From Candidatus Eiseniibacteriota bacterium (GTDB taxonomy: Bacteria > Eisenbacteria > RBG-16-71-46 > DASYSL01): a DNA stretch of 64,000 nucleotides. Positions 12,210 to 59,956 of this stretch are shown piece after piece. Each line of letters opens with the position of its first letter. The first letter of the stretch is position 1. The translations under genes and the position numbers were made by a program. The stretch lies in NCBI GenBank assembly GCA_046598045.1, contig JBKJJJ010000127.1, forward strand, positions 9,419 through 73,418, in the 5' to 3' direction. The notes under the pieces are model-generated. The model made no database searches. It saw only the letters and a program-made list of their open reading frames with translations, and was not told where the DNA came from.

Positions 12210-12282
12210 GAGGAGAGCTCCCGGCCCCCGAGCCCGCCCGGGGAGAGCCCGGGCGGGACGGGACCGTGCCTGGAGACGCTGT

Positions 12283-13083: not shown

Positions 13084-13361
13084 CGTTGGGGATCCTCCTC
13101 TTGAAGGACGATTTTCTGAGACAAGGTTCGACGATGGTTCCAAACGAGAGTCGATGCAGCGGTGATTCGGCGATGCTCGCCGGAGGCCAGCATGAGGCGT
13201 GCGTCGCCGGGGGAAACCGGAGGAAGTCGATGCGAAATCGAGGGATGGCCTTCCGTTCCGATTACTGTTGTAAACGTTTACATGGCAGGGGTGACAGTGT
13301 CAACGAGGAATCCGGGGAATCGGCCCTCGAGGGGGATCAGTTTTCCCCCGACACTGGCTAA

Positions 13362-22187: not shown

Positions 22188-22399
22188 CCCCGGCTTCAAA
22201 ACCCGGCTCGCACCACCAGCTCCCCGGCTCGCTCCTCCAGCTCACTGGCCCGCCCGCTCAAGTCATTCTCAAGTCCCTCCCCCTAGTCTCGCCGCAGTTG
22301 GGAGCGCCGGCAATGAGCCGGTCTTGACCGGGTGGCAGGCGGGACTCGGGTCCCGCCGCCACCGGTACGCGAGCGACGCCACGGCGTCGAGGGGGAACA

Positions 22400-25954: not shown

Positions 25955-26038
25955 GCGCGAGCGGATGGGGGCGATCGGTCTTCGTGCGGACCCCGTTGGG
26001 CCCGGAATCCACGGGATCGGCGGAGATCGGTCGTTGAG

Positions 26039-26076
26039 GCGGGCCGGGGAGCAATCCCCGGCCCGCGTCGTTGTTG
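26039..26076 (+). terminator. Putative intrinsic terminator after protease 2 (approximate coordinates)
   Basis: An 11-bp GC stem gcgggccgggg / ccccggcccgc with a 6-nt loop is followed by gtcgttgttg. A TTGACA hexamer follows immediately, which may be a -35 element for protease 3. Confidence 0.4.
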
Positions 26077-26201
26077 ACACGGAGGCCGGATCCGGGGGAA
26101 ACTCATTCGATTTTGTCGCCATTCCCTCTTTTGCGGAATCGTGTCCGGGTCCCCCCTCGGCCTCGCCGTCCGTGCCCCCCTGATCAGGAGATCCTGGACG
26201 C

Positions 26202-36444: not shown

Positions 36445-36483
36445 AGGGCGCTCTCCTTTGAAGGAGGGCGCCTTCGTTCGTTG
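36445..36483 (+). terminator. Putative intrinsic terminator after the lipoprotein gene (approximate coordinates)
   Basis: An imperfect hairpin gggcgctctcc-tttgaa-ggagggcgcc is followed by ttcgttcgttg. Confidence 0.4.
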
Positions 36484-36504
36484 AAGGCAGAGCGGGCGGA
36501 GCCC

Positions 36505-36580
36505 ATGCAAGTTTTGCATTGCAGTCTTGTAAGAAATTTGGCTTACTCCGTACGTTTTTGCCGATAAGAGAATGGTTGCC
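36505..36580 (+). promoter_or_regulatory. AT-rich island with an inverted repeat in the 320-nt leader/intergenic region upstream of the giant gene; likely promoter/operator
   Basis: Local composition drops far below the 70% GC background (catgcaagttttgcattgcagtcttgtaagaaatttggcttactccgtacgtttttgccgataagagaatgg). It contains the inverted repeat TGCAAgtttTTGCA and TTGCAT / TAAGAAAT -35/-10-like hexamers. Confidence 0.35.
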
Positions 36581-36803
36581 GGACAAGGAGTCCGGGAGCC
36601 GCGACACCCCACGTGCGGGGGGTACGCAGCTGCAACCACGAACGGATTCGACACGCCCGTCTCTCGGACGGCCGCAGGATGCGCACACGCATCCTCCTGC
36701 CCCGGCCGTCCCGTGCCCCCCGTTCCACGCACCGACAACTGCTGGCCGTCCGGTCCCACTCGCTTCGTGGCGCCCCCCTGGGCGTTACCCTGGAGGTGAT
36801 GGC

Positions 36804-42800: not shown

Positions 42801-45800
42801 ACGCCGGGGCTGCTCGCCGGCCACATCAGGAACGCGGCCCCGGGGCTCGAGATCTCGGTCCCCCGCCGCCCGGCGCCGGCCGACGGCCACACGCTCGTGC
42901 CGGTGACGGTGCGCGTGCCCGGGGATGCGCCGGTGGCGGTCACGCTCGACAGTGATCTCGGCCTCTGGCAGGTCGCCGACCAGGATCCGAAGCACGACGG
43001 CATCCAGACCAGCGTCACGCACCAGGCCACGTTCCTGCTGGTCGCCCCGGCCTCCGCCGGCGCGGGCACGGTGCGCGTGACCGAGGACACGGACCTGAAG
43101 GGCAAGGTCACGTCGGACGGCCCGACCGCCCTGAGCGGCGTGCGCGAGGCCGAGGCCGGCCTCGTGTTCATCCCGAGCCCGCGGCCGTGGCTGGTCACGG
43201 GCACGATCGAGGGCCGCTACGACGGGCGCTCGGTCCACGCCGACGAGCTCGCTCCGGGGCAGATTCGGGACCGCTTCGAGGACGCGTTCACGGTCGTTCG
43301 TTCGGACAACAGCGACGGCACATCGAACCTCGGCGCGCGCGGCGCGATGTTCGCGAAGGGCACGATCGGCGGCAACGTGGGCGTGACCTTCCGCTTCGAC
43401 TCCGAGCACGCGGCGGACCGTCGCCGCTTCGACGACATTCGCCCGGACGAGGGCGAGGCGAACTTCGGCGACGCGTCGGTCTCGGGCTTCGAGGCGCAGT
43501 CGACCGAGCGCCTGTACGCGCGCCTCGAGCGCGGCCGCTCGTACGCTCTGTACGGCGATTTCCAGACCGCGGCGCTCGACCCGATCCGCGTGCTCGGCGC
43601 GTACTTCCGCGGCGTCAACGGCGGACGCGCGCACCTCGAGAACGGGCGCGCGGCGGTGGACGCGTTCGCGACGCATGACAAGGACCGCCAGGTCGTCGAC
43701 GAGATCGACGGCCGCGGCATCTCGGGCCCGTATCCGCTGTCGCGCAAGGACGGCGTGCTCAACAGCGAGCGCGTCGAGATCGTCACGCGCGACCGCAACA
43801 ACCCGTCGGTGATCCTCGCCCGCAAGGTGATGACGCGCTTCGCGGATTACACGATCGAGCCCTTCACCGGGCGCCTCCTGTTCCGCGCGCCGGTCGAGGC
43901 GCTGGACGAGCGCCTGAACCCGGTCTCGGTGCGCGTGACCTACGAGGTCGAGGGCGGCGGCGACCGCTTCTGGACCGCGGGCGGCAGCGCGAATCTCAAG
44001 CCGGTCGATGGCGTCGAGCTGATGGGCTCGTACGTCAAGGAGGACGACCCGGCGCGCGAGCACGTGCAGTACGGTGCCGGCGCCACCGTGAAGCTCCTCG
44101 CGCGCACGTTCGTGACGGGCGAGTGGGCGCGCACCGACAGCGCGGGCACGGGCGCGGCGAACGCGTATCGCGGGGAGATCCGCCACCAGGCGGACCACCT
44201 CGACCTGCGCGGCTTCGCGGTGCGCACCGATGCCGGCTTCGACAACCCCTCGTCCGGCTACGCGGCCGGACGCCAGGAATGGGGCGGCGGCGCGCGCTAC
44301 CTGCTGGGCGGACGCTCGTCCGCCACGGCCGAGGGCGTGCTGACGAAGGACCTCGCGACCGGCGGACGCCGGAAGGGCGCGTCGCTCGGCCTCGAGCGCC
44401 GCCTCTCGGACGGCGTGTCGCTCGGCATCGGTTATCGCTGGGCGCGCGAGAGCTCGCTGCCGGCGGGCGGCGGCAACGCCGTGCCGACTCCGAACGAGAC
44501 CGACGCCGCGCGCGCACGGCTCACGGCGCAGTTCAACCCGCGCACGAGCCTGTTCGCCGAGTACGAGAACGACCTCGGCGCGGGCAACGCGAAACGCTTC
44601 GAGGTGGGCGGCGACCGGCGCCTCACCGACCATGTGCGGGCGTACGCGCGCCACGAATTCCTGAACGGCTTCGCGGGCCCGTACGCGCTCGACGACCGCC
44701 AGGGCCTCAACACCACCGTCTTCGGGTTCGCGGCCGACGGCCAGTCCGACCTCTCGGCGTTCAGCGAGTACCGCGTGCGCGACGCGTTCGCGGGGCGCAA
44801 CGCCGAGGCCGCGATGGGCCTGAGGGACCGCTTCCGCCTCTCCCCCGCCGTGCGCGTCCTGCTGTCGGTCGAGCGGGTCACGCCGACGAAGGGCGCGCCG
44901 GCGAGCGACGGCATGACCGCGATCGCGAGCGGACTCGAGTGGACCGGCGACCCGCTGACCAAGGGCTCGCTGCGGCTCGAGTACCGCAAGTCGCAGGACC
45001 AGCCGCAATGGCTCGCGTCGGGCGGCCTGGCGCGCAAGCTCGGCCGGGACTGGACGGGCCTCGCGCGCTCGATGTGGAGCTGGGCGCCGAGCCAGCAGCG
45101 CACGGTGGCGCGCGACGAGATCGCGTTCGCGCTGCGCGAGACCGATCGCAACCACTGGAACGTGCTCGGCCGCATCGAGCACCGCCTGGACGAGCAGCAG
45201 CTCGAGCCCGGATTCGACAGCCGCCACGAGGTGTTCCTCGCCTCCACGCGGCTCAACCTCCGCGCCTCGCGCCCGCTCACGCTGATGGGCCGCGCGGCCG
45301 GCAAGTGGACATTCGACGACGCCGGCGCCCGCACGATCGACGGCCGCGGCGCGCTGGCCTCGCTGCGCGCGCTCTACGACCTGTCCCCGCGGCTCGACCT
45401 CGCGCTGGCGGCGCGCTCGCGCTTCGACGGCTCGTTCGACCGCCGCACCGACGGGCTCGGCGCCGAGCTCGGCGTGCTGGTGACGAAGAACCTCAGGCTT
45501 TCGGGTGGCTACAACGCATTCGGGTTCCACGATCCGGACTTCGCCTCGCTCGAGCGCACGGACAAGGGTCCGTTCCTCGCGTTCGGCTTCAAGTTCGACG
45601 AGGGCCTGTTCGGGGGTGGGCACGACGCGGTGCCGGCGGCGGCTTCGGCCCCGGCCGAGGGCGTCCAGCGCGGGGCAATCGCGACCGCGCCGAGGGACAC
45701 GCTGTCGGCCAACTGGGCGCGCGTCAGCGACCCCGCGATCGCGGGCGACCTGCGCACGATCGACGCCTGGCGCGCGCGGGTCGACGCCCAGCCCGATTCG

Positions 45801-46745
45801 CTCGGCATCTACGGGCGCGCCAAGGCGAGGGCCTGGCTCACGCTCGCCCGCGCCGAATACACCGACAACGACCGCACCGGCGACGCCGAGCGCGCGCTGG
45901 CGAACGCCGTGGCGCTCTACCATGCAATGAACGGGGCGAGCGGCATCGATTCGGCCGCGTTCGCAGCCGCCTCGGCGCGGTCCCTCCCGCGCCCCGAGCA
46001 CCTGGCCGCGGGCGACATCGACGCGCGGATCGCGACGTTGAAGACGCACCCCGGATTCCACTGCGCCGAGGAGGAGGTCGCGCGTTACGAGGTCGAGCTC
46101 GCCTGGGCCGGGAACGAGGACCGGGACCAGGGCGCATGCAAGGCCACGCCGCACGAACAGGAAGCGCAGCGCCTTGCCGAGTCGATCGAGGCCAAGGAGG
46201 CGGAGTGCGTCAAGCCGGTCGCGATTCCCGTCCCGGTGGATACGACGCAGGCCCCGCCGGTCATGCCGAACTCGGAAATCGAGGAGATCCAGGCTGCGCT
46301 GGCCGAGATCCCGAGCGGGATCCACTTTGCGCTCAATCGCAATGACCTGAGCGCCACGTCCAGGGACGTCCTCGCGAGGATCGGCGTGGTGATGGCGAAG
46401 TACCCGCACATCAAGGTCGATCTCAAGGGCCACACCGATTCGCGCGGCTCGGTCGCGTACAACCTCGCGCTGTCGAAGCGCCGCGCGGACGCGGTGCAGA
46501 ATGGGCTCGAAGCGGTGGGCGTGGACTCCGCGCGCATCACCACGTCGTTCGCCGGCAAGGGCGAGTTGCTCACGGCGGAGAAGGACGTGCGCGACCTCGC
46601 GCTCAACCGGCGCGTGGACTTCCACTACTATGACCCGACCGGGACCGAGATCATCGCGAAGAAGCAGACCGGGGACATCCAGATCGAGAAGCCGAAGCCG
46701 GCCAGGCGGCCCGCGCGCAAGCGGGCCGTGAAGACCACGCGGTAG
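36804..46745 (+). CDS. Giant cell-surface protein (3313 aa): signal peptide, N-terminal domain, about 11 DUF11 repeats, SdrD-B/CnaB-like domain, long beta-rich (putative beta-barrel) region, C-terminal OmpA-like peptidoglycan-binding domain
   Basis: The start is the GTG at 36804 behind GGAGG (7-nt spacer), giving VISSVYRRALVLVLGLLAIPAIASAQ. The ORF-track frame is open from 36519. DUF11 repeats have the form PDLQLAKRHAGDFTVG..GQYTITVTNVG..PTTGTITVVDTLPSGLG...GAGW...GIVTAT. The SdrD-B-like segment is GKVWADCDCDSNRAQGKEELGVPGVRVYLEDGRSAITDVEGKYHF. The OmpA_C segment is IHFALNRNDLSATSRDVLARIGVVMAKYPHIKVDLKGHTDSRGSVAYNLALSKRRADAVQNGL. Confidence 0.85.
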   Translation: MISSVYRRALVLVLGLLAIPAIASAQFTIQRTSSPIFYNDVGNSPSLRCMYASYEVTNTGGSTIADVWVDIGSFTGGVVGRASSEDGVVELGAMAPGQRKTAYFYLQANTTTGVAQGHTVHVYASRPPASAALTQSYTITSVQSTIAANANKVTTVVSGPNPPQVGGIVTITVSGHTGTIGSPPVLAFSPATDILWSAAVFEMISTRITFSGSPNAGVVTDSLIVAPADPGNTDYVAVYTMRAAGTTVAPTAVTPIGYFASGANVKHTDTGNYGGFAPIPPPESKLTLTKSATPTYIVDGGVSTYTIHIVNSGFADGTLDDIKDVLPGASTIVPGSSTFNGLPIGDPSVAGRTAFWYGPFTLLANSSRDLIYQASFPATAGTFVNQALAHVGSAIIDTTLALSDSLPGKAPIVVYVHNADISITKGDVPDPVGPDSTLTYTLVVSNAGPDTAFTTSALDTLPAGVAFVNASATQGTASEASGVVQVAIGTLAPGASSTITIVVTPSAVGTLVNTARATNARVDYVPGNNTATTTTTVRLPPLPDMQIIKRAAPAMFTVGQTVAYILSLTNIGTGPTEGAIAVVDTLPAGLSYVSGSGPGWSVSESGGVVTATNPGPIALGDSALVTIQATVRAAAFPGVLNLARVTTFRDSDAANDTSSVVNAVLGAPDLQLAKRHAGDFTVGSPGQYTITVTNVGNLPTTSTITVVDTLPSGLGYIAAAGAGWTTNETSGIVTATYASLILPGDSTSFTLDVTVGPAAAPWAVNTAVSTVTGDVGAANDRGVDSTRVIGFPDVQMIKRAVGAPFTVGGIATWTLTATNVGSGATTGPITITDTLAPGLTFGSAAGTGFSTSFADPTVTATYAAALAPGDSATVTLTARVSAAASPAVANTALANTPGDTSAANDSSTATSAVNDAPDVRLAKRHAGDFTVGVNGQYVIKVYNEGSAPTTGTVTVLDTLPSGLGFVAGTGAGWTVNEALGIVTATNAGPIAAGDSASFTLDVSVGPTAMPSVVNAAVASATGDLNGGNDRGIDPTNVSAALTPDLQVVKRALAPPFTVGGTASYAITVTNVGSAATTGTITLSDTLPAGLTWISGSGAGWIVTQSLGTVTATNAGPIAPGDSALVTLTVQVGAAAAPSVINSATGSTPGDASPGNDTGSSTTAVNDAPDLRLSKSHASDFTVGTNGQYRITLFNDGSIPTTGTITVLDTLPFGLGFVAGTGAGWSVNEALGIVTATNAGPIAVGDSASFTLDVTVGPAAFPGVTNSAVAQTAGDIDGGNDRGVDPTIVQPAPVFPPDLQIVKRAPGAPFTVGGSATYVLSVTNVGTGPTTGGITVTDVLPTGMTFVSGSGAGWIVTAALGTVTATNAGPIASGDSSLVSIITSVGAAALPSVSNSASVATAGDGNAANDNGSNTSAVNGAPDLAMGKRHFGAFTVGQPGVYTLTVRNVGSIATTGTITVVDSLPAGLTYVTGNGAGWAFGAAGQVVTATNAGPIAAGDSLSFTLTVAVGNAALPGVTNVAVARTPGDASPANDRATDATAISGAPDVALLKRHVGSFTVGANAAYQIAVLNLGTAATAGTITVRDTLPTGLTFVSLTGAGWSSSLSGNVVTATNPGPIAPADSATFTLTVLVGPAAYPSVLNAAVAQVAGDNNPGNDRGSDVPAPVVYASQLALEKRAAPSIVEPADVVTYTLVLSNLGVSQVPGVVVRDTLPVGFRFADGTASVNGTPIADPAGAPGAGLAFNVGTVPANGAITLRYRALVGTSAVLGDGINRAYAENAGLNLRSNTAAAKVTIHGGVFADDGVLAGKVWADCDCDSNRAQGKEELGVPGVRVYLEDGRSAITDVEGKYHFEAVAPRLHTVKLDKTTLPQGAHIEVVNTRDGMSPGTRFADVKDGELYRADFALAGCDPAFVSELKARRELGEVRAAIQTAQPTTAANVEPGATRVLDGTPWAGEAGARSDDGAFYHVMPGHLNDGAAGSDPRNLLSAASSLVPDAPGTPGLLAGHIRNAAPGLEISVPRRPAPADGHTLVPVTVRVPGDAPVAVTLDSDLGLWQVADQDPKHDGIQTSVTHQATFLLVAPASAGAGTVRVTEDTDLKGKVTSDGPTALSGVREAEAGLVFIPSPRPWLVTGTIEGRYDGRSVHADELAPGQIRDRFEDAFTVVRSDNSDGTSNLGARGAMFAKGTIGGNVGVTFRFDSEHAADRRRFDDIRPDEGEANFGDASVSGFEAQSTERLYARLERGRSYALYGDFQTAALDPIRVLGAYFRGVNGGRAHLENGRAAVDAFATHDKDRQVVDEIDGRGISGPYPLSRKDGVLNSERVEIVTRDRNNPSVILARKVMTRFADYTIEPFTGRLLFRAPVEALDERLNPVSVRVTYEVEGGGDRFWTAGGSANLKPVDGVELMGSYVKEDDPAREHVQYGAGATVKLLARTFVTGEWARTDSAGTGAANAYRGEIRHQADHLDLRGFAVRTDAGFDNPSSGYAAGRQEWGGGARYLLGGRSSATAEGVLTKDLATGGRRKGASLGLERRLSDGVSLGIGYRWARESSLPAGGGNAVPTPNETDAARARLTAQFNPRTSLFAEYENDLGAGNAKRFEVGGDRRLTDHVRAYARHEFLNGFAGPYALDDRQGLNTTVFGFAADGQSDLSAFSEYRVRDAFAGRNAEAAMGLRDRFRLSPAVRVLLSVERVTPTKGAPASDGMTAIASGLEWTGDPLTKGSLRLEYRKSQDQPQWLASGGLARKLGRDWTGLARSMWSWAPSQQRTVARDEIAFALRETDRNHWNVLGRIEHRLDEQQLEPGFDSRHEVFLASTRLNLRASRPLTLMGRAAGKWTFDDAGARTIDGRGALASLRALYDLSPRLDLALAARSRFDGSFDRRTDGLGAELGVLVTKNLRLSGGYNAFGFHDPDFASLERTDKGPFLAFGFKFDEGLFGGGHDAVPAAASAPAEGVQRGAIATAPRDTLSANWARVSDPAIAGDLRTIDAWRARVDAQPDSLGIYGRAKARAWLTLARAEYTDNDRTGDAERALANAVALYHAMNGASGIDSAAFAAASARSLPRPEHLAAGDIDARIATLKTHPGFHCAEEEVARYEVELAWAGNEDRDQGACKATPHEQEAQRLAESIEAKEAECVKPVAIPVPVDTTQAPPVMPNSEIEEIQAALAEIPSGIHFALNRNDLSATSRDVLARIGVVMAKYPHIKVDLKGHTDSRGSVAYNLALSKRRADAVQNGLEAVGVDSARITTSFAGKGELLTAEKDVRDLALNRRVDFHYYDPTGTEIIAKKQTGDIQIEKPKPARRPARKRAVKTTR
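38050..41900 (+). repeat. Tandem array of DUF11-type repeat units inside the giant gene, organised as an alternating A/B di-domain unit of about 750 nt repeated at least 4 times (approximate boundaries)
   Basis: A-type units begin APD(L/V)(Q/R)LAKRHAGDFTVG near 38806, 39551, 40302 and 41061, giving periods of 745, 751 and 759 nt. B-type units (KRA.GAPFTVGG...NVG.G.TTG.IT) sit between them. Confidence 0.7.
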
Positions 46746-46825: not shown

Positions 46826-48223
46826 CTACTGCCCGGCGGCCGGCGGACCCAGGAGCGCGTCCCGCCGCTTGGTCAACGTGGCGAGCGTCGAGCGGCTGCG
46901 CTGCGCCTCGGGAAGCGCGTTGAGATACGCGATCGCCACCTCGTACGTCTTGCGCGCGGACACGGCGTCGCCCTTGCCCGTGAACGCATCGGCGCGTGCG
47001 AGATAGCTGCGCAGCTTGCGCGGCCCGTAGGCCCGCGCGAGCGCCCGGTCGGTTGCCGCCAGCGCGTCATCCCAGCGCTTGAGCGCGTTGTAGGCGATCG
47101 CCAGCCGGGCCGGCGGATTGTAATCGTTCGGTAGCGCCTGCTCGGACGCCTGGAGCATCGGGATGGCCTTCTCAGGCTGTCCCAGCTCGAGGTACGCCGA
47201 GAGCCGGTGCGGATCGAACACCGCGCGCTCGTCCGCCGTCCTGGCGCGGGCCGCGGCGCCCTCGAGGAAAGCGGCCCATTGCTCTGCGACCGCGTGCGCC
47301 CCGGTCGAATCGTGCGCCTCGGAGCGGGCGTCGTGCAACACGCCGTACGTGCCGCTGCGGTCATCGTCCGACATCAGGATCGAGGGGTCGGCCAGGTAGT
47401 CCCGCGTCCTCGCCTCGTAGCGCGCGATCAGCGCGGCACGCCCTTCCGCCGTGTCCGGCAACGCCAGCGCCGCCCCGAGCGCGCTGCCCGTGATGCTCGC
47501 GCCCGAGGTCGTGCGTCCGAGGCGCGGCAGCACGGTCTCGGCGAGCGCGAGCGAGGCGCGGCTCTGGTCGGTGGTCGAGAGCGCGTACATGAGCGATTCG
47601 ACCGCGCGTGCGTAGCTCGCGTCTCCCGGCGCGAGCGCCGGCAACGCCTCCTGGTAGGCCGTGGCCGCGGCCGCATAGTTGCCGTCGCCGTACAGGCGAT
47701 CCGCACGCGCGAGCGGTCCCCCGGGCGCCGCGAGTGCGGCGCGCGCGTCGTCGAGGAAGGCGTGGAGCTGGGGTAGCGTCATGCCGCCGACCCAACGCCG
47801 GACGACGGTCTCGCTCTCGGCGTTCACCACGTAGAACGTGGGAAGCGCCTCGGTCGGGAGCTTCTTGAGCGCGGCCTGGTTCCTGGATTTCTCGTTATCA
47901 AGCGCCAGCCAGACAAACTGCCCGGCCCGGCTCGAGAGGGACGCGTCCGTGAAGACGAACGCCCTCATCGAGCGACACGTGTGTCACCAGGGTGCCCACG
48001 ACTCGACGAAGATCGGAACGTGCCGCGCGCGCGCGATCGTCACCGCCCGCGCGTAATTGTCGGCGATGAACGGCACGGCCTCGGGACGCGCGGCCGCCTT
48101 CGCGACCGGCTTCGCGGCGTGCTTCGCGGGGTGCTTCGCGGCCACCGCGGCCTGCGCTGGCGCACTCGAGCCGGCCACGGCGGCGAACGCGAGGATGAGG
48201 AGCGATCCAACTCGAGCCAGCAT
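46826..48223 (-). CDS. Secreted thioredoxin-fold plus TPR protein with an in-frame TGA at the first Cys of the W-C-x-x-C motif; candidate selenoprotein (alternatively a pseudogene or sequencing error)
   Basis: Two ORF-track ORFs (47984..48346 and 46826..47968) are in the same frame and are separated only by the TGA at 47984..47986. The read-through product is MLARVGSLLILAFAAVAGSSAPAQA...VPIFVESWAPW-[TGA]-HTCRSMRAFVFTDASL..., that is WAPW(U)HTC, a TlpA/DsbE-like WCxxC motif with Sec at the nucleophilic position, followed by about 300 aa of TPR repeats. The start is assigned to the ATG (codon 48221..48223) behind GGAGGTG (7-nt spacer). Confidence 0.5.
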
Positions 48224-48411
48224 GCTTGCACCTCCAATGCGGGAGAACGACCGTCGGCAGCATGCCCCAGCGCCAGGACGCGCGCAACGGCCGCGCGATA
48301 TCGGCCCCGGCGCCCCGTCCCGGCGACTCAGGGCGATCCGCAACAACCGGTTGCCAGTCTGTCGCTTATGGCTCCGAAGCGCGCGTCCCGCTGATCCGCT
48401 AGGATACGCGG

Positions 48412-49896: not shown

Positions 49897-51609
49897 TCAG
49901 CCGCCGACGGCGCTGACCCTCACCATGCGCTTCGCCGCGTTCAGCCCGGGGCCGACCGCGCGATAGAAGAACACGCCCGGCGCCACCTTGCTGCCCGCGT
50001 CGTCCCGGCCATCCCACGTCGCCGCGTGCGTCCCCGCGGGCAGCTCGGTCGAGAGCAGGTGCTTCACCTCGCGGCCCGCGACGTCGAAGATCACGATCTC
50101 GGTGTGGCCCGCCGTAGGCAGCGTGAAACCGATCGAGGTCGTGACCGTGAACGGGTTCGGCCACGCGTCGCGCAGCGCCACGCTCCCGCCCCCGCCACCC
50201 GGATCGACCGAGGTGACGCGCGGCTGGAACCAGCCGATGTCCTCGAACGCGAACTTCGTCAGGTCGACGGTGCTCGAGAGGCCGTCGGTGATGAACGGCT
50301 CCATCAGGAGGCTCGGCTCCGCGCTCGGGTCCCAGTGCGAGATCGACGAGCCCGGCTCGACCGGGTTCGGGGTGTAGAGCAGCACGCGCCCGTTGTCGTC
50401 GGCGCCCGCGAGGAACGCGGGGTTCGGCCCGATCGACATGGTGACTCCGCCGCCGAGCTGCCCCTTGATCGCGGTGCCGTCCGCCTGCGAGACGCTGACC
50501 GTCGGGATCGTGATGCTCGGGTCGGTGCCGCCCATCGCGGGCGGCGTGCCGGCCACGTTGTTCACGATCACGACCGCGATTGCGCCGGCCGCCTGCGCGC
50601 CGGCCGTCTTCTGGACGAAAGCACAGTTGCCGCGGTCGATGAGCGCGATCTTGCCCACCATCGCGCCGCCGTTGACCAGCGCGGTGCAGCCATCGGACGT
50701 CGGCACGAGGCCGTCATCGGCGAGCACGACCGATCCGCTGACCGTCGCGGCGCCGGCGGAGGGGCCGAAGTCGGCGGTGCCGTAGACCTTGAGCCCCGCG
50801 ATCCCCGCCGGCGTGAGCACGCGCACCTCGGTGCGCGGGCCGAGCACGGTCGGCGCGACCACCTTGACCGCGGAGCCGTCCCATCCCACGTGGCCGGTGT
50901 TGAGCGCCGAGGTCGCGCGCTGGGCGTTGCTCATGGTGTTCCAGCGCAGCCCCACCGAGTTGTCGAAGACGAAGCGCTGGTAGATGTCCGGGAAGTTGTT
51001 GAAAAACGCGCCGGTGCTCAGGCTGCCGTACTGGGCGAAGCCCAGGCCATGGCCGAGCTCGTGCAGCACGACCGGCAACAGCTCGATCTTGCCGACGGGC
51101 TCGTTGCCGTCGACGCCGTAGTACCACGTCTGGCCGCCGAGGCAGCCGCCCCCGTCGAGCGTGGAATTGAACTGCGCATTGATATCGTTGCCGAGAGGGT
51201 CCTCGTCGACGCCCGCGAGCCGGCTCGCGAGGGCAATCGGATACCAGGTCCCCGTGAACTCCGCGTTCGGAAAGTCGCGCAGCAGCGTGACCGCGCCCGC
51301 GCTGCCGAGAGCCGCGCTCGTGGCGTCGCAGCTCAAGGGGTTGAACTGCGCCGACACCTTGATCGTCACCGCCGAGGGCAGAATGTTGCCCCAGATGCCG
51401 GCCGCATTCTGGAACACGAACAGGCGCTGCGCGCCGAGCGTCGTCCCCGGGTTGCCGCCGACAGGCGCCGCGGCGGTCGGATCATTGAAGCCCTCGCCCG
51501 CACCATCCGAGTTGACGATCACGATCGTCGCCGCTCGCGCGACGAGGGGAATGGAGAGAGTCATGAAGACGAGGAGGGCGGCCGGCGTGAACCTGCGGAG
51601 CTCGCCCAT
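49897..51609 (-). CDS. Secreted zinc metalloprotease (HExxH) with PA (protease-associated) domain and T9SS CTD
   Basis: The start is the ATG at 51609 (MGELRRFTPAALLVFMTLSIPLVARAA). The zinc-binding motif is VVLHELGHGLGF. The PA domain is GKIALIDRGNCAFVQKTAGAQAAGAIAVVIVNN. The C-terminus AWPNPFTVTTSIGFTL...GVFFYRAVGPG is a T9SS CTD. Confidence 0.7.
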   Translation of the reverse strand: MGELRRFTPAALLVFMTLSIPLVARAATIVIVNSDGAGEGFNDPTAAAPVGGNPGTTLGAQRLFVFQNAAGIWGNILPSAVTIKVSAQFNPLSCDATSAALGSAGAVTLLRDFPNAEFTGTWYPIALASRLAGVDEDPLGNDINAQFNSTLDGGGCLGGQTWYYGVDGNEPVGKIELLPVVLHELGHGLGFAQYGSLSTGAFFNNFPDIYQRFVFDNSVGLRWNTMSNAQRATSALNTGHVGWDGSAVKVVAPTVLGPRTEVRVLTPAGIAGLKVYGTADFGPSAGAATVSGSVVLADDGLVPTSDGCTALVNGGAMVGKIALIDRGNCAFVQKTAGAQAAGAIAVVIVNNVAGTPPAMGGTDPSITIPTVSVSQADGTAIKGQLGGGVTMSIGPNPAFLAGADDNGRVLLYTPNPVEPGSSISHWDPSAEPSLLMEPFITDGLSSTVDLTKFAFEDIGWFQPRVTSVDPGGGGGSVALRDAWPNPFTVTTSIGFTLPTAGHTEIVIFDVAGREVKHLLSTELPAGTHAATWDGRDDAGSKVAPGVFFYRAVGPGLNAAKRMVRVSAVGG

Positions 51610-52166
51610 CACTGGACCTCGTGCTTCGGCGCGGGCGCCGCGGCCTGGGTCTGTGCATCCTTCCGGAAGCGCGCGGCCGCCTCGGGCCCGTGCACGCAAT
51701 CGCGCACCAGCTTGCCGTCCGGACCGATGCGCGCCACCTCGTACTCCTGGAATCGCTCGTCGAGCCGCGCCAGCGTGGCGCCGTTGGCGAGCCGCTCCGT
51801 GGTGATGCCGCGCGCGGGATCATCATCGGGCGCGGCCTGGTGGATGCCGGACTGGGCGTCGAGCGCCTGCACCTGCTCGGCGGTCGGACGCACGAGGCGT
51901 CCGGTCGCCGGATCGATCGCGGCCTTCATGCCGAAGGTTCCGCGCGTCGTCGCAACCTTCGCGGCGCGCACGCGCGTAACGTGCGCCTTGGCGTGCGCGG
52001 CCTTGGCGTGCGTCGCCTTGGCGTGCGTCGCCTTGCGCGCGGTCGGGAGCAACGTGTGCGCCCCTGCGGCCTGGGCCGGCGGCGTGGATGCGATCATGAT
52101 CAGGGCGGTGAGCGCTCCGGCGATGCTGACCCGGAGCGTGGGGGGCTGAGCAATCCATCGCTTCAT
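51609..52166 (-). CDS. Small secreted protein (185 aa) with His-Ala-Lys tandem repeats, unknown function; translationally coupled to the metalloprotease
   Basis: This is the C-terminal part of the spurious ORF-track frame 51609..53153. The real start is the ATG at 52166 (MKRWIAQPPTLRVSIAGALTALIMIASTPPAQA). ATHAKATHAKAAHAKAH is encoded by three 15-nt tandem repeats (gccttggcgtgcg.. family, about 51976..52022). The stop overlaps the metalloprotease ATG by 1 nt. Confidence 0.55.
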   Translation of the reverse strand: MKRWIAQPPTLRVSIAGALTALIMIASTPPAQAAGAHTLLPTARKATHAKATHAKAAHAKAHVTRVRAAKVATTRGTFGMKAAIDPATGRLVRPTAEQVQALDAQSGIHQAAPDDDPARGITTERLANGATLARLDERFQEYEVARIGPDGKLVRDCVHGPEAAARFRKDAQTQAAAPAPKHEVQ

Positions 52167-54494: not shown

Positions 54495-55793
54495 TCACTC
54501 TTCCCGGTTGGATGCCAGGGCCTCGCGATTCGTGCGCAGGGGTTCATCGACGGTGAGGCGCGCCAGGTCGTCCATGGTCTCCCCACGGCGGACCAGCCGG
54601 GCCACGCCGCCCTCGAGCAGGACCTCGGGCAGCCGCGGGCGGCCGTTGTAATTGGAGCTCATGGTGTAGCCGTACGCCCCCGCGTCGAGGATCGCCACGC
54701 CGTCCCCGGGCGCGAGCGGCGGCAGGGCGCGCCCGCGTGCGAGGCAGTCGCCGGTCTCGCAGATCGGCCCCACCACGTCGGCGACGAACGTCCGGGCCGC
54801 CGTGCCCGGCTCGGTGAGCGGCACGATGCGGTGGAACGCGTCGTAGAGCGCGGGCCTCAGCAGGTCGTTCATCGCGACGTCGAGCACGACGAACGTGCGC
54901 GCAGGCCCCTTCTTGACGTCGAGCACGCGGCCGATCAGCGCGCCGGCGGCGCCCGCGACGTAGCGGCCCGGCTCGACCAGCGCGAACAGCCCGCGGCCCT
55001 TCACCGCCTCGCGCACCCGGCGCGCATAGGCTTCGAGCGGAAACGTGGCGCCCGTGCCCTCGTAGTCGATGCCGAACCCGCCGCCCAGGTCGAGCGTGTC
55101 GAGCCGGGCGCCGGCCGAGCGTCCCGCGTCCACGATCTCGAGCGCCTCGGCGAGCGCGGCCTCGAGCGGCGCCAGCTCCATGAGCTGCGAGCCGATGTGC
55201 ACGTGCAGCCCCGCGATCGCGAGGTGCGGGTAGGCCCCGGTGCGCGCGCAGGCGGAGAGCGCCTCGATCGGCGTCATGCCGAACTTGCTCTCCTTGAGTC
55301 CGGTCGCGATGTAGGGATGCGTGTGCGGGTCGACGTCGGGATTGACCCGCAGCAGCACGCGCTGCACCCGCCCGGCGCGCGCGGCGGCCGCATCGAGGCG
55401 CGCGAGCTCGGCCGGGCTGTCGGCGCTCACGAGGCCGATGCCGCAGGCGATCGCCTGGTCGAGCTCGGCGGCCGTCTTGCCGTTGCCGTTGAGCACCAGC
55501 AGCGCCGGATCGAATCCCGACGCCAGCGCGAGCTGGAGTTCCCCCCCGGAGGACACCTCGGCGCCCAGTCCGTGGGCGCGGGCGAGGGCGAGCAGCGCGG
55601 GGTTCGTGTTGGCCTTGACCGCATAGCAGGCGCGCGCCCACGAGCCGTCGAACGCCCGGCCGAGCGCCTCGGCGCGGGTCTTGATGCCGTCGCCGTCATA
55701 CACCCACGCGCTGCCCACCTCGGCGAGCACGTGGGCGAGCGACACCCCGCTCGCGCTGAGCTGTCCCTGCTGGTACCGGAATCCGGCGTCCAC
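54495..55793 (-). CDS. lysA: Diaminopimelate decarboxylase (PLP-dependent fold-type III decarboxylase)
   Basis: YAVKANTNPALL (PLP Lys), HVHIGSQ, GGGFGIDY and EPGRYVAG are present, with the CETGD catalytic Cys context. Substrate assignment within the ornithine/DAP/arginine decarboxylase family is by best motif fit. Confidence 0.75.
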   Translation of the reverse strand: MDAGFRYQQGQLSASGVSLAHVLAEVGSAWVYDGDGIKTRAEALGRAFDGSWARACYAVKANTNPALLALARAHGLGAEVSSGGELQLALASGFDPALLVLNGNGKTAAELDQAIACGIGLVSADSPAELARLDAAAARAGRVQRVLLRVNPDVDPHTHPYIATGLKESKFGMTPIEALSACARTGAYPHLAIAGLHVHIGSQLMELAPLEAALAEALEIVDAGRSAGARLDTLDLGGGFGIDYEGTGATFPLEAYARRVREAVKGRGLFALVEPGRYVAGAAGALIGRVLDVKKGPARTFVVLDVAMNDLLRPALYDAFHRIVPLTEPGTAARTFVADVVGPICETGDCLARGRALPPLAPGDGVAILDAGAYGYTMSSNYNGRPRLPEVLLEGGVARLVRRGETMDDLARLTVDEPLRTNREALASNREE

Positions 55794-55846: not shown

Positions 55847-56350
55847 ATGATCATCCGTCGTGCGCCTCTCATGCAAGCCTCGATCGCAGTCCTCGCGGTC
55901 GCGCTCGCCCTCCTGGCCGTCGGCTGCACCGAGAAGCTGGTCCAGCCCCCGCCGCCGCCGACCGTGCTCGCGGTCCCCGACAGCATCCAGCAAATCTTCA
56001 CCGCAAATTGTGCGTTCAGCGGGTGTCACGGCGGCGCGACGCCGCAGCAGGGCCAGGACTTGAGCGACGCGGTGACGAGCTACGCGCACATCGTGGACGT
56101 GGCGTCGAACGAACGCAGCGCGTTCAAGCGCATCGCGCCGGGGGACAGCGCGAACAGCTACATCGTGATGAAGCTGCGGAACGACCCGCGCAAGGGCGGC
56201 CAGCCGATGCCGCTCGGGGCGTATCCGCTGGACGGCGTGCTGGTGTTGCGGATCGCGCTCTGGGCGCAGCAGGGCGCGCCGGGCGTGCCCACGATCGCTG
56301 CGCGCGTCCCGCACACGGGCGACGGCGACGCGCTCGCCGCCGCACACTGA
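55847..56350 (+). CDS. Lipoprotein with a planctomycete-type cytochrome-c-like domain (CX4CH variant haem-binding motif)
   Basis: The signal peptide has lipobox LLAVGC. IFTANCAFSGCHGG...QDLSD...PGDSANSYIVMKL...QPMPLG resembles the PSCyt1-type domain, but with C-x4-CH instead of C-x2-CH. A possible promoter TTGACA-17nt-CAGGAT lies about 25 nt upstream of the ATG. Confidence 0.45.
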   Translation: MIIRRAPLMQASIAVLAVALALLAVGCTEKLVQPPPPPTVLAVPDSIQQIFTANCAFSGCHGGATPQQGQDLSDAVTSYAHIVDVASNERSAFKRIAPGDSANSYIVMKLRNDPRKGGQPMPLGAYPLDGVLVLRIALWAQQGAPGVPTIAARVPHTGDGDALAAAH

Positions 56351-56356
56351 GCCAGG

Positions 56357-58453
56357 CTAGACCTTCCCGACCTCGACGAAATTGGTGTAGAACGTCGCGC
56401 CGCCGCCGGCATCCGTCAGGCGCAGCGACGTGGTCTGGTTCGCGTTGGCGCCGCCCTCGGTGAAGCGCGACCACCATCCGCGATAGCACGCGACCACGCC
56501 GGGGCCGGTCAGGTCCGACACCTCGGCGGTCGTGATCCACGAGCCGCGATCGTTCCACACGCGCACGCGGTCCCCGCTCGCAATGCCGCGGGCCTCCGCG
56601 TCGGCCGCGCTGAGGTAGAGCAGCGGGCCCTTCGCCAGCCGCCGGCCGCGCTCATTCTCGACCATCGAGGAGTTGATGAAGTAGCGCGACGCCGGGGTCA
56701 GGAAGTGGAGCGGCCACTTCGCGTGCTCGGCCGCCACGTCGGGGTGGGTGTCCTCGCTCGTGAGCGCGCCCAGCACCGGATCGAGGCCGTGCCCCTTCAT
56801 CAGGCTCGAGACGAACTCGACCTTGCCCGAAGGCGTGTCGAACTTCCCGTCGAGCCACGGCGAGTACACCGGCAGCCGCGGATCCTGCGGAGCCAAAGGC
56901 ACGCTGCGCTCGCGCTCGAGGCGCTCGGGGGTGATGCCCTTGAGCCGCGGGTTCGCCGGGTTGTCGAGCGCGATCGCGAGCACGTCGTCGAACGTCTGGT
57001 CGAAGCACGGATCGTCGAGCCCCATGCGGTGCGCGAGGTCCTGGAACACGTCGAACAGCGGGCGGCACTCGCCGGGCGCGGGCACGGCCGGGCGATTGAG
57101 CTGCAGGTGGTAGTGGCCGTACGCGAGATGCAGGTCCGAGTGCTCCATCTGCATGGTCGAGGGCAGGAGCACGTCGGCATGGAGCGCGGTGTCGGTCATG
57201 AACTGCTCGTGCACGACCGTGAACAGGTCCTCGCGCTCGAGCCCCTTGCGCACGCGCGACTGGTCCGGGTTCGACGCGCCCGGGTTCGCCGAGTAGACGA
57301 ACATGGCGCGCACGGGCGGATCCAATTCGGTCAGCGCCTGGCCCAGCAGCGACATGTTGATCGTGCGCGGGGTGCGCGGCTCGAGGTCCGGGCGGGCCAT
57401 GCCCTTGCGATTGAGCCCGAAGGCCGCGGACGTCGAGAGCCGCGCGCCACCGCCGGGCCGCGCCCAGTCCCCCACCAGCGCGGGCAGGAGCGCGACTGCG
57501 CGCACCATGGCCGCGCCGTTGGTGTGACGATTGAGGCCGTAGTTGAGCCGCACCAGCGCCGGCCGCGACTCCGGGGCCGCGTACAACGCGGCGAGCCGGC
57601 GAATGTCCTCCGCCGGGACGCCGGTGAGCTGCGCGGCGCGCTCGGGTGGGCACTCCTGGGCACGCGCGCGATACTCGCGCCAGCCCAGCGCGTGCGCCTC
57701 GAGCCACGGTTCGTCGTGCCAGCCGTGGGCGAAGATCTCGTGCGCCACCGCAAGCGCGAGTGCGGCGTCGGTGCCGGGCCGGACGCGGATGTGCCAGTCG
57801 GCCTTCTCCGCGGTCGGCGTCCTGAGCGGGTCGATCACCACGACCTGCGCGCCGCCCTTGCGCGCGTCCTCGATGAACGGCCAGTCGTGGATCGAGGTCG
57901 CGAGCACGTTCGCGCCCCAGAGCACGATCAGCTTCGTGAGCGGAATCGATTCGGGAGGCGGACCCTGGTTCGTGCCGTAGCACGACCAGAAGCCCTGGGT
58001 CCCCGTGGTCGAACAGATCGTCTCGTCGAGGCGCGACGCGCCGAGCGCGTGGAAGAATCTCCGGTCCATCGAGCCATTCTGGATGAGCCCCATCGTGCCG
58101 GCGTAGTGGTAGGGCAGGAGCGCCTCGCCGCCATGCTGGTCGATGATCGCGCGCAGCCGTGCGGCGACCAGGTCCAATGCCTCGTCCCAGCTCGCGCGGC
58201 GGAACTCGCCCTTGCCCTTCGCCCCGCTACGGATCTGGGGATAGAGCAGGCGCTCGGCGTGGTTCAGGCGCTCGTCGTAGCGATTGACCTTGTTGCACAG
58301 GAAGCCGCGCGTGACCGGGTGCGCGGGGTCGCCGTGGACGCGGACGACCTTGTCGCCTTCGACCTCGACCAGCAGTGCGCAGGTGTCGGGGCAGTCGTGC
58401 GGGCATACGGCCTTGAGGGTGCGGCGTTCGGGGGTCGCGGTGGCGGGCGTCAT
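56357..58453 (-). CDS. Molybdopterin (bis-MGD) oxidoreductase family catalytic subunit with N-terminal 4Fe-4S cysteine motif (nitrate reductase/formate dehydrogenase-like; substrate unknown)
   Basis: 698 aa. CPHDCPDTCALLVE (Cx2Cx3C...C) is followed by MGD-binding domains, with a C-terminal molydopterin-dinucleotide-binding domain (...GDRVRVWNDRGSWITTAEVSD...). Confidence 0.8.
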   Translation of the reverse strand: MTPATATPERRTLKAVCPHDCPDTCALLVEVEGDKVVRVHGDPAHPVTRGFLCNKVNRYDERLNHAERLLYPQIRSGAKGKGEFRRASWDEALDLVAARLRAIIDQHGGEALLPYHYAGTMGLIQNGSMDRRFFHALGASRLDETICSTTGTQGFWSCYGTNQGPPPESIPLTKLIVLWGANVLATSIHDWPFIEDARKGGAQVVVIDPLRTPTAEKADWHIRVRPGTDAALALAVAHEIFAHGWHDEPWLEAHALGWREYRARAQECPPERAAQLTGVPAEDIRRLAALYAAPESRPALVRLNYGLNRHTNGAAMVRAVALLPALVGDWARPGGGARLSTSAAFGLNRKGMARPDLEPRTPRTINMSLLGQALTELDPPVRAMFVYSANPGASNPDQSRVRKGLEREDLFTVVHEQFMTDTALHADVLLPSTMQMEHSDLHLAYGHYHLQLNRPAVPAPGECRPLFDVFQDLAHRMGLDDPCFDQTFDDVLAIALDNPANPRLKGITPERLERERSVPLAPQDPRLPVYSPWLDGKFDTPSGKVEFVSSLMKGHGLDPVLGALTSEDTHPDVAAEHAKWPLHFLTPASRYFINSSMVENERGRRLAKGPLLYLSAADAEARGIASGDRVRVWNDRGSWITTAEVSDLTGPGVVACYRGWWSRFTEGGANANQTTSLRLTDAGGGATFYTNFVEVGKV

Positions 58454-58499
58454 GGCGCATGAGCGTACGCCGCCGGGGCCCCCGCTTCAAGCCGCGGAC

Positions 58500-59183
58500 T
58501 CAGTCGTTCGGGGCGCGGCGCTCGAGCTGGCGCGAGCGCTCGAGCGCCCGGTCCCACTCCTCGGGCGTGTTGACGCCGGCCAGGCTCTCGAGTCCGCCGG
58601 GCCAGACGCCGTCCTTCTCGACCTCGAGATAGCGGATCCGCGGGCCCAGGTCCGTCAGGGCGCGCGCCGGGGAGCGCTCCCCGCGATTCCACGCCGCGCG
58701 CAGAACCGCCCCCGCATACACCGGCCGATAGGCCCCGATCAGCGGCTCGACGCCGCGCATGGTGCGGGGCACGACGGCCGCGGGCGGCACGACCGACAGC
58801 GTGGCGAGCGGCCCGTCCACCGGATCGAGCGCCAGTGCGAGCGCATCGAGATGGGCGTCCCCGATCAGCGGCAGGTCGGCCGGGATCACCCACGCCACGT
58901 CCGCGCGCGCGGTCGCCGCGCGCTCGAGCGCGGGCACGAGCCCGGCGAGCGGCCCGTCGCCGTTCGAGAGATCATCGACGCGCTCGAAGCGCGCGCCGTC
59001 CGGAGGCAGCGGAAACGCGTGCGGCACGGCAACGAAAATGCGCTCGGTGCGCACGCTCAGCAATTGGATCGCGCGTTCGAGCAGCGACATGCCGCCGAAC
59101 GTGCGCAACGCCTTGGGAGGGCCCGGGCCGAGCCGCATGCCCGAGCCACCGGCGAGGATGATGCCCGCGCGCACGAGGCTCAC
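58500..59183 (-). CDS. mobA: Molybdenum cofactor nucleotidyltransferase (MobA/MocA-like)
   Basis: The ORF-track frame 58500..59735 has a 184-aa Arg-rich N-terminal extension that overlaps the upstream gene. The real start is the GTG at 59183 (GTGA overlap), giving VSLVRAGIILAGGSGMRLGPGPPKALRTF..., the canonical MobA glycine-rich N-terminus. The neighbouring bis-MGD enzyme favours a guanylyltransferase (MobA) over a MocA assignment. Confidence 0.65.
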   Translation of the reverse strand: MSLVRAGIILAGGSGMRLGPGPPKALRTFGGMSLLERAIQLLSVRTERIFVAVPHAFPLPPDGARFERVDDLSNGDGPLAGLVPALERAATARADVAWVIPADLPLIGDAHLDALALALDPVDGPLATLSVVPPAAVVPRTMRGVEPLIGAYRPVYAGAVLRAAWNRGERSPARALTDLGPRIRYLEVEKDGVWPGGLESLAGVNTPEEWDRALERSRQLERRAPND

Positions 59184-59956
59184 GTGCGCACCCCGCGCCT
59201 TACGCTCGTCCACTCCTGGCGCCTCAAGTCGCCCCACAGCACCTCGCCCACGCCGCGCTCGACCAGTCCGAGCGCGAGGCGCTGCGCGACCGCCACCCGG
59301 ACCGGGCGGTCGGCCTGGTTGAGGAACACCGCATAGCGCCCGCCCGGCGGGACCGCCGCGCGGTAGCCGGCGGGGTCGGCGAGCGCCGCGTAATACGCGT
59401 CGTCCTCGATCCGCTCGCCCTCGGCGAGACCGAGGTGCGCGGCGAAGAGATCGTGGCGATGGACCGTGTCGGGGCCGAGCGGTGTTCCCCAGGCATCGAG
59501 CCCCGCGACCGCGACCACGAGCGAAGTGTCGAGCGGCACCGCCGGATCGCCCGCCACCGGCTCGGCCAGGGAGCGCCCGACCGAATCCCCGCACTTGATG
59601 AGCACCAGGTCCGCATTGCCCGCCCGCGCGAGCGCGTCGATCTCGTCGGGCCCGAGGGGATCGATCTGGCCGGGAGCCTCGGCCTTGCGACCGACCACCA
59701 GCAGTTCGCCGCCCAGAAAGCCCACCGGGGGCCACGCCGAGCGCGCGGCAGGCAGCAGCACCGTGCGCACCCCGGGGACGCCGCGCCCTTCATGGCGCGT
59801 GACGCGCGCAGTCGGGGCGAGCAGCGGCTTGCCGCCGGACTGCGCCCAGGCGAGGCCGAGCGTGGTGAGGAGGCTCATCTTGCCGCCACCACCGATCGCG
59901 GCAACGCGCGCTTCCCTCGGCACGGCGAGCAGTTCGGCAAGCGGTCGGGACGGCAT
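59180..59956 (-). CDS. YqeC-family P-loop protein (MobB-like accessory protein associated with molybdoenzyme maturation; annotated in other genomes as selenium-dependent hydroxylase accessory protein)
   Basis: The start is the ATG at 59956 (MPSRPLAELLAV...). RVAAIGGGGKMSLLTTLGLAWAQSGGKPLLAPTARV parallels the YqeC block VISFVGAGGKTTLMFALA...GKRVLVTTTTHI. DLVLIKCGDSVGRSL parallels the (W)ILVEADGSARKPL block. This is from remembered family features, not a search. Confidence 0.5.
   Translation of the reverse strand: MPSRPLAELLAVPREARVAAIGGGGKMSLLTTLGLAWAQSGGKPLLAPTARVTRHEGRGVPGVRTVLLPAARSAWPPVGFLGGELLVVGRKAEAPGQIDPLGPDEIDALARAGNADLVLIKCGDSVGRSLAEPVAGDPAVPLDTSLVVAVAGLDAWGTPLGPDTVHRHDLFAAHLGLAEGERIEDDAYYAALADPAGYRAAVPPGGRYAVFLNQADRPVRVAVAQRLALGLVERGVGEVLWGDLRRQEWTSVRRGVRT

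Follow-up and report, generated by a model that had tools for sequence, protein, structure and literature searches.

A yqeC-mobA gene pair beside a bis-MGD oxidoreductase gene

We analyzed a 64,000-nt stretch of DNA from Candidatus Eiseniibacteriota (contig JBKJJJ010000127.1, G+C ~70%), here called the window. Its nearest relatives are Candidatus Eisenbacteria metagenome-assembled genomes, three loci of which were returned when a genome collection was scanned with a single protein query. Three consecutive minus-strand genes encode a YqeC-family P-loop protein, a putative nucleotidyl transferase of molybdenum cofactor (Moco) synthesis, and an oxidoreductase of the family that carries two molybdopterin guanine dinucleotides (MGD; bis-MGD for the paired cofactor). 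The first two are denoted yqeC∗ and mobA∗, the asterisk marking the divergent forms of the window clade, and the oxidoreductase gene is denoted mopB (Table 1). A preliminary description of this DNA, made from the letters alone, had read the first two genes as overlapping in the tetranucleotide GTGA; the overlap is confirmed at 59183-59180 and is, as judged from the sequence, translational coupling.

Table 1. Positions of the three genes and of other features of the window
Feature	Position	Strand	Description
yqeC∗	59180-59956	minus	258 aa, ATG start; divergent YqeC-family P-loop protein (TIGR03172, PF19842)
GTGA overlap	59180-59183	minus	TGA stop of yqeC∗ shares bases with GTG start of mobA∗ (read from sequence)
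mobA∗	58500-59183	minus	227 aa, GTG start; predicted divergent MobA-type Moco nucleotidyl (guanylyl) transferase (PF12804)
Spacer mobA∗/mopB	58454-58499	minus	46 nt, without predicted terminator
mopB	56357-58453	minus	698 aa, bis-MGD oxidoreductase, predicted cytoplasmic (PF04879, PF00384, PF01568)
Twin-arginine-like stretch of mopB	58420-58453	minus	residues 9-16 of the oxidoreductase
Lipoprotein gene	55847-56350	plus	167 aa, predicted; between mopB and lysA; C-x4-C-H motif (CAFSGCH); 0 Pfam matches
lysA	54495-55793	minus	
Thioredoxin-like/TPR gene	46826-48226	minus	secreted thioredoxin-like (PF13899/PF00085) and TPR protein
In-frame TGA	47984-47986	minus	exactly at the first Cys of CxxC (WAPW-U-HTC) of the thioredoxin-like protein
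Regions listed for subtilase, DUF11/OmpA and FlgD_ig proteins	19494-29717; 36462-46745; 49897-51699	plus; plus; minus	

The order yqeC∗-mobA∗-mopB is kept in all six contigs that reach far enough to display it (the window, L001, L002, L004, L092 and the contig of P0071), across which YqeC identity is 50-74%. In the P0071 contig the trio is intact within flanking genes quite different from those of the window. Because the same genes recur in the same order in 6/6 informative contigs, and do so in P0071 with changed flanks, chance adjacency is ruled out and the trio is a conserved module. The 4-nt overlap is likewise kept in L092 (9167-9170) and in the P0054 contig; in the latter and in L093 the overlapping pair is visible before the contig ends. 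The distance from mobA∗ to the oxidoreductase gene is similar to that of the window, at 46 nt in the P0071 and P0054 contigs and 69 nt in L092. On the 224-kb Eisenbacteria contig L004 the oxidoreductase orthologue is split across two frames (11298-14087; the gene caller gives 430 aa), the result of either a frameshift (pseudogene) or an assembly error.

Searches with tblastn and family hidden Markov models found no homologue of YqeB, XdhA/B/C, SelD, MobB, SsnA or YgfK in the window, in agreement with the earlier statement that no YqeB or xanthine dehydrogenase (XDH)-family gene lies within these 64 kb. The same family models found no YqeB, XdhC, XDH, SelD, MobB or MoCF gene in the related loci (L001-L004, L092, L093). 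No Moco riboswitch or other RNA element was matched in the window with Rfam. A promoter and terminator scan of the locus returned one plus-strand promoter-like site and one terminator-like site inside mobA∗ that is probably spurious.

Divergent motifs in YqeC∗ and MobA∗

YqeC∗ passes the YqeC model TIGR03172 marginally (80.8 bits, cutoff 73.05, where canonical members reach 115-195 bits) and the domain model PF19842 at 60.5 bits (cutoff 27.6), and it aligns by tblastn with E. coli YqeC residues 7-247 at 29% identity over 253 residues (E = 1e-17). The search of family models that the preliminary description had proposed thus places the P-loop protein with YqeC and not with MobB, for which there were no family matches. 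Descent from MobB was considered and rejected: MobB is also absent from the top 50 Foldseek matches, and an hhalign comparison with the E. coli protein aligned 33 columns around the P-loop (probability 58%).

We compared 25 YqeC∗ sequences of the window clade with 49 canonical YqeC sequences. The canonical Walker A motif G-x-G-G-K-T/S (T in 47, S in 2) reads G-G-G-G-K-M/K in the clade (M in 20, K in 5), so that the T/S at position 27 is replaced by M/K in 25/25 sequences. The T-T-T-T strand, nearly invariant in canonical YqeC, is L-A/L-P-T in the clade, and the Walker-B-like motif E-A-D-G (E in 49/49) has become K-A-D-G, with K121 in 25/25. The His of H-E-P, kept in 45/49 canonical sequences, is mostly lost (G in 15/25), and N-[KQ]-x-D is kept in both groups. 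The window protein itself has GGGGK-M-S, L-A-P-T-A and K-C-G-D where canonical YqeC has G-x-G-G-K-[TS], T-T-T-T and E-A-D-G, and retains N-Q-A-D. A more distant relative (P0254, 41% identity) likewise has Lys in place of this Glu, and in it the P-loop Lys and N-K-x-D are gone too. The YqeC family comprises ~2,100 representatives at E≤1e-3, and GK-M occurs in only four of the 150 best representatives (50% identity clusters). Judged by these motifs, YqeC∗ is a small, distinct, motif-altered YqeC subfamily.

In P-loop NTPases the Mg ion is held by the Walker A Ser/Thr together with the Walker B acidic residue. Because the Walker A Thr/Ser and the Walker B Glu are both lost in the clade, the YqeC∗ lineage probably binds nucleotides while hydrolyzing them little or not at all. 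The AlphaFold2 model of YqeC∗ is very confident (predicted local distance difference test score, pLDDT, 93.9; predicted template modeling score, pTM, 0.92). Foldseek matches of this model to solved structures were weak (E≥6e-3, TM≤0.44) and belonged to SIMIBI-class GTPases and ATPases: the MeaB-like domain of IcmF, FtsY/SRP54, NifH, MipZ and MeaB. Comparison with the sequences of solved structures gave no significant match. An exact-sequence look-up of the window YqeC∗ (P0001) found no record of it.

Such motif loss could also be taken to mean that YqeC∗ is a decaying relic of a former YqeC-MocA module, in which only MobA∗ and the oxidoreductase matter. The window protein is indeed the most degenerate of its clade, with K-C-G-D for K-A-D-G, GDP for HEP and A131 for K, and it barely clears the TIGR03172 cutoff. 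We consider decay very unlikely, given that ~58 homologues at 53-82% identity have an intact reading frame of full length, that the substitutions are fixed clade-wide (M/K27; K121) rather than random, that the 4-nt coupling is conserved, and that the fold of YqeC∗ is modeled with high confidence.

The transferase gene also departs from its family. MobA∗ matches PF12804 (74 bits, cutoff 27), and its best NCBIfam match is MobA TIGR02665 (57.5 bits, cutoff 151.85), ahead of NF002741 (45.3, cutoff 179) and MocA TIGR03310 (18.5, cutoff 186.45). Its assignment to the Moco nucleotidyl transferases, which the earlier description had made, holds. In alignment, LAGG, GPLAG, DxP and VNTPEE are common to MobA∗ and E. 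coli MobA, and MobA∗ lacks the TAAG, GLLTS and IDTPDD motifs of E. coli MocA (Table 2). By these motifs MobA∗ is of the MobA and not the MocA type. The same positions reportedly set guanine versus cytosine specificity (Neumann and colleagues, 2011), and MobA∗ would accordingly be predicted to use GTP as a guanylyltransferase. A role of MobA∗ in making MGD also fits the bis-MGD fold of the adjoining enzyme.

Table 2. Transferase motifs of window MobA∗ and of E. coli MobA and MocA
Motif	Window MobA∗	E. coli MobA	E. coli MocA
N-terminal nucleotide motif	IILAGGSGMRLG	VVLAGGKARRMG	IITAAGLSSRMG
Second motif	DGPLAGLV	PGPLAGML	QGLLTSVK
Catalytic D-x-P	ADLP	CDTP	GDMP
C-terminal motif	VNTPEE	VNTPEE	IDTPDD

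The oxidoreductase and its relatives

The third gene product carries the domains Molybdop_Fe4S4, Molybdopterin and Molydop_binding, four iron-sulfur (FeS) Cys (C17-x3-C21-x3-C25...C53) and a Mo-ligand residue, as expected of the DMSO-reductase (MopB) superfamily. The preliminary description was right in placing a bis-MGD oxidoreductase next to the pair; the FeS motif is Cx3Cx3C and not, as it had stated, Cx2Cx3C. Cys147 aligns with the Cys/Sec (selenocysteine) Mo-ligand position of FdhF and is the probable Mo ligand. The best solved relatives are FdhF of the hydrogen-dependent CO2 reductase (HDCR; 7qv7, 2e-53) and acetylene hydratase. The protein has no signal peptide. Its N-terminal PERRTLKAV resembles a twin-arginine motif (RRxFLK) without a hydrophobic region after it, and may be a vestigial twin-arginine translocation or chaperone-binding remnant, or a coincidence.

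Substrate prediction failed, as the equivalog models stayed far under their cutoffs and annotated orthologues bear generic labels throughout. None of the NCBIfam equivalog or subfamily cutoffs for FdhF, NasA/NasC/NarB, DmsA/YnfE, BisC, PhsA or NapA was reached, the top scores being 253 vs 666 for Fdh-alpha, 238 vs 778 for dmsA_ynfE and 160 vs 1100 for NasC. Streptomyces, Nonomuraea, Burkholderia, Agrobacterium/Allorhizobium vitis, Ralstonia, Bradyrhizobium, Paenibacillus and Thioclava have full-length orthologues at 41-45% identity, which conserve the FeS Cys and the ligand Cys; where annotated, they are labeled only 'molybdopterin-dependent oxidoreductase' or 'molybdopterin oxidoreductase family protein'. 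Acidobacteria orthologues are closer (49-52% identity).

The neighborhoods of these orthologues differ from that of the window. In Allorhizobium (pAtS4e) and on a Thioclava plasmid the oxidoreductase gene is the first of an AraC-flanked operon that also encodes a ferredoxin, an FAD oxidoreductase and the product of moaA or glp, and in Acidobacteria it follows a 4HBT thioesterase gene among peptidase genes. No YqeC or MobA gene was found beside the orthologues of other phyla (Streptomyces, Proteobacteria and Acidobacteria examples), nor beside P0158, a 61% identical oxidoreductase. Set against this clade as a whole (Streptomyces, A. vitis pAtS4e, Ralstonia, Thioclava, Acidobacteria), the window enzyme shares 41-52% full-length identity, the motif CP[HL]DCPD[TG]C...C, the ligand Cys and a cytoplasmic location, and is set apart by the YqeC∗ and MobA∗ genes alongside. 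The association is specific to the Eisenbacteria-type lineage.

Genes of amino-acid and peptide metabolism recur beside oxidoreductase orthologues: lysA in Eisenbacteria, dapF in Streptomyces, an M20 peptidase in L097, and M28/M24/M14 peptidases with the 4HBT thioesterase in Acidobacteria. These recurring neighbors, seen at 54495-55793 of the window, L094:6033-6977, L097:2005-3198, L098 and L099, may hint at the substrate. The predicted lipoprotein gene between mopB and lysA keeps its position in L092 and L004.

YqeC as a proposed partner of Moco nucleotidyl transferases

We compiled 80 metagenome loci from a scan with the canonical YqeC alignment and annotated them with family models; neighbors within 5 kb were counted in the 19 loci flanked on each side by 2.5 kb or more. 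The usual gene order is a MocA-type NTP_transf_3 protein, YqeB (~270 aa; an example in L060 scores 367 bits on TIGR03309, cutoff 220), YqeC, a ~193-aa protein and XdhC/CoxI. YqeB/XdhC-family genes were present in 17/19 loci, NTP_transf_3 in 15/19, MoCF biosynthesis genes in 6/19, an XDH Mo subunit in 1/19 and SelD in none. Bis-MGD enzymes as general YqeC neighbors were rejected, as they occurred in 3/19 loci and were never adjacent; the one in L008 belongs to a different subfamily (28% identity, without the FeS cysteines). All 32 NTP_transf_3 proteins near canonical YqeC carry the MocA-type [AG]AG and G-x-x-x-S motifs. The ~193-aa protein between yqeC and XdhC/CoxI (L060:11036-11614 and ~20 canonical loci) is conserved and has no Pfam or NCBIfam match, and a ferritin/rubrerythrin-like gene often stands ahead of the cluster.

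YqeC is also found fused to the transferase. Among the 150 best YqeC representative clusters (50% identity), 24 contain YqeC-NTP_transf_3 fusions, 23 of them in the gene order of the window; P0269 is among these, and P0285 has the reverse order. Other fusions join YqeC to a methyltransferase (P0282) or a LysR-type helix-turn-helix domain (P0320). The 458-aa fusion P0258 passes both the YqeC and MocA equivalog cutoffs, its C-terminal half scoring 203.7 on MocA (cutoff 186.45), and its AlphaFold2 model (pLDDT 91.7) shows no disordered or flexible linker between the halves. P0258 thus shares the domain order of the window genes, and differs from them in that its transferase is MocA-type (LAAG) and its YqeC half canonical, whereas the window genes are separate and the transferase is MobA-type.

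Taken together, the fusions, which are the most telling evidence, the adjacency of the genes and their translational coupling indicate a physical partnership of YqeC with a Moco nucleotidyl transferase. A YqeC subfamily locked to a MobA-type transferase and a bis-MGD enzyme, without YqeB, XdhC, SelD or XDH genes in the sequences examined, the frequency of fusions, and a clean switch from MocA motifs beside canonical YqeC to MobA motifs beside the window clade further suggest that the Moco dinucleotide-forming enzyme has YqeC as its P-loop partner. Compared with the canonical YqeC of E. coli (b2876) and C. difficile (CD2071), which lie in yqeB-yqeC-mocA(ygfJ) loci of selenium-dependent molybdenum hydroxylases, YqeC∗ has full-length homology, a predicted SIMIBI-type P-loop fold, the P-loop Lys, N-x-x-D and an adjoining NTP_transf_3 Moco nucleotidyl transferase gene. 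It differs in its GK-M/K, its K-A-D-G and the absence of TTTT, and its locus differs in lacking a YqeB or XdhC neighbor, in the MobA-type rather than MocA-type partner and in the bis-MGD rather than XDH-family enzyme.

We think it reasonably probable that the yqeC∗-mobA∗-mopB operon couples a cytoplasmic, Cys-ligated bis-MGD oxidoreductase to the final step of its own cofactor synthesis. MobA∗, on the evidence of its motifs, would add GMP to Mo-molybdopterin to give MGD or bis-MGD, and this product would serve the adjoining enzyme and possibly others too. The GTGA overlap would allow YqeC∗ and MobA∗ to be made at about 1:1. YqeC∗ is predicted to be a P-loop protein of the SIMIBI class; it retains the P-loop Lys and the N-x-x-D of guanine recognition, has lost the Mg-binding Thr/Ser and the Walker B Glu, and would most likely be an adaptor that binds nucleotide and hydrolyzes it poorly. 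By binding MobA∗, and perhaps the apo-enzyme as well, it would aid cofactor hand-over. Across the family, YqeC would pair with a Moco nucleotidyl transferase, most often of the MocA type in XDH/YqeB/XdhC contexts, and the window clade would have switched to the MGD branch. Selenium would be unnecessary in this scheme. The gene identities, the overlap, the conserved gene order, the motif switch and the fusions are read directly from the data; GTP specificity, complex formation, loss of hydrolysis and the client relationship are inferred. Moco genes (moaA, glp/moeA) in the operons of the Proteobacteria oxidoreductase orthologues also speak for an enzyme linked to its cofactor supply.

The role so assigned to YqeC∗ would be the one proposed for MobB with MobA, reached from another P-loop lineage. 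In the E. coli MobA-MobB pair a guanylyl-transferase-type gene likewise overlaps the gene of a small P-loop protein, which in both cases is seemingly an accessory rather than the catalyst, and MobA/MobB fusions (NF011056, NF011059) parallel the YqeC-transferase fusions. The two differ in that MobB has 175 aa and is not homologous to the 258-aa YqeC∗, that the gene order is reversed in the window, with the P-loop gene first, and that MobA∗ is too divergent for the MobA equivalog models. The preliminary description had offered YqeC-like proteins as generic MobB-like partners; the analogy in function is supported by the fusions, by NTP_transf_3 in 15/19 canonical loci and by the coupling, and a common descent with MobB is not, hhalign aligning the P-loop alone and Foldseek returning no MobB among its top 50. 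The data suggest that YqeC is a functional analogue of MobB, not a homologue.

This analogy agrees with published observations. MobB is viewed as assisting MobA without being essential (PMC7759655). In C. difficile, delta-yqeB and selD mutants are impaired, unlike a delta-yqeC mutant, which has no purine phenotype (PMC11448449). YqeB and YqeC mark the selenium trait only together, and each may have selenium-unrelated roles (PMC5029168); yqeC clusters with mocA in C. difficile and adjoins mocA in E. coli (PMC11448449, PMC12623156). The literature searched still takes YqeC as a marker for the selenium cofactor, its mechanism unknown (bioRxiv 10.1101/2025.04.24.650524). We found no mention in the searchable literature of YqeC-transferase fusions or of a YqeC subfamily linked to MobA and bis-MGD enzymes.

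Several points weigh against the operon reading set out above. The T/S28 that follows the Met might still give the Mg ligand, so that loss of hydrolysis is only probable; MobA∗ scores far under the MobA equivalog cutoff, and its proposed GTP specificity depends on a few motifs. The pTM of the P0258 fusion model (0.71) lends a fixed interface only moderate support. Oxidoreductase orthologues of Acidobacteria and other groups (50-61% identity) do without YqeC and MobA neighbors, and therefore the enzyme does not intrinsically need them. The YqeC∗-MobA∗ pair may also be the general MGD machinery of the organism.

This last possibility deserves weighing in its own right: the pair would be a housekeeping system, the sole MGD machinery of the lineage for every bis-MGD enzyme, with the oxidoreductase merely its neighbor. 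It would explain the orthologues in Acidobacteria and P0158 that stand without the pair, it accords with the lack of a second mobA or mobB in the ~150 kb of Eisenbacteria sequence examined, and the mobAB genes of E. coli also overlap and stand alone as a pair. Yet the trio holds together at 50% YqeC identity despite changed flanks, the spacer is short and terminator-free, and related enzymes elsewhere bring their own Moco genes. We regard a purely housekeeping pair as unlikely, while noting that it differs from the preferred explanation, an operon supplying its own enzyme, in the number of clients only and shares its mechanism.

Selenium, other features of the window and implications

The preliminary description had alternatively suggested that the bis-MGD enzyme receives an unusual, possibly selenium-modified, cofactor. 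YqeC∗ and MobA∗ would then equip it with a chalcogen-modified cofactor bearing a labile selenium or sulfur ligand. The NCBIfam family that YqeC∗ passes is named 'selenium cofactor biosynthesis protein YqeC', some canonical yqeC genes adjoin selB, and the organism probably uses selenium, to judge from a candidate selenoprotein in the window. We nevertheless consider such a cofactor extremely unlikely. Neither the window nor any of the related loci contains a YqeB, XdhC, SelD or cysteine-desulfurase-like gene, and the trait is marked by YqeB and YqeC jointly only (PMC5029168). The mutants with a phenotype in C. difficile are those of yqeB and selD (PMC11448449). The NTPase residues of canonical YqeC are lost in the YqeC∗ clade, and the Mo ligand is a normal Cys conserved in orthologues that have no YqeC. 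With no positive evidence found, this part of the earlier proposal is not upheld.

Its companion claim, that selenium use by the organism is plausible, fared better. The in-frame TGA of the thioredoxin-like/TPR gene falls at a CxxC Cys (Table 1) and is followed after ~11 nt by a predicted stem-loop (dG -31.8 kcal/mol, z -1.87); the protein is plausibly a selenoprotein, and the genome would then have to encode Sec machinery, SelD included. tRNA-Sec was sought in the window, where no tRNAs were found. Among canonical loci, yqeC adjoins selB in L053:213-2249 and L082:8026-9966, a selenium link without YqeB or XDH.

Elsewhere the window carries subtilase genes, three in tandem, of which two encode a FlgD_ig domain at the C-terminus. 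A PA-domain protein of the window likewise ends in FlgD_ig, and a 3427-aa protein combines 11 DUF11 repeats with an OmpA domain at its C-terminus. In L004 and L092, FlgD_ig is also borne by the 1350-aa proteins encoded upstream of yqeC∗. The domain resembles a C-terminal tag for sorting or anchoring that is typical of the lineage.

YqeC is one of the two marker genes by which the 'third selenium utilization trait' is scored in genomes, and the only YqeC knockout, in C. difficile, is without phenotype. Members of the window clade are automatically annotated as 'selenium cofactor biosynthesis protein YqeC' (for example P0040), which is likely an over-annotation and could lead to overcounting of the selenium-cofactor trait among soil phyla. 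A chalcogen-modified bis-MGD cofactor, if true, would be the first selenium-cofactor system beyond the xanthine dehydrogenase family. The conserved trio gives the enigmatic YqeC family a testable role, and it suggests that YqeC proteins are helpers of Moco nucleotidyl transferases rather than selenium-specific factors.

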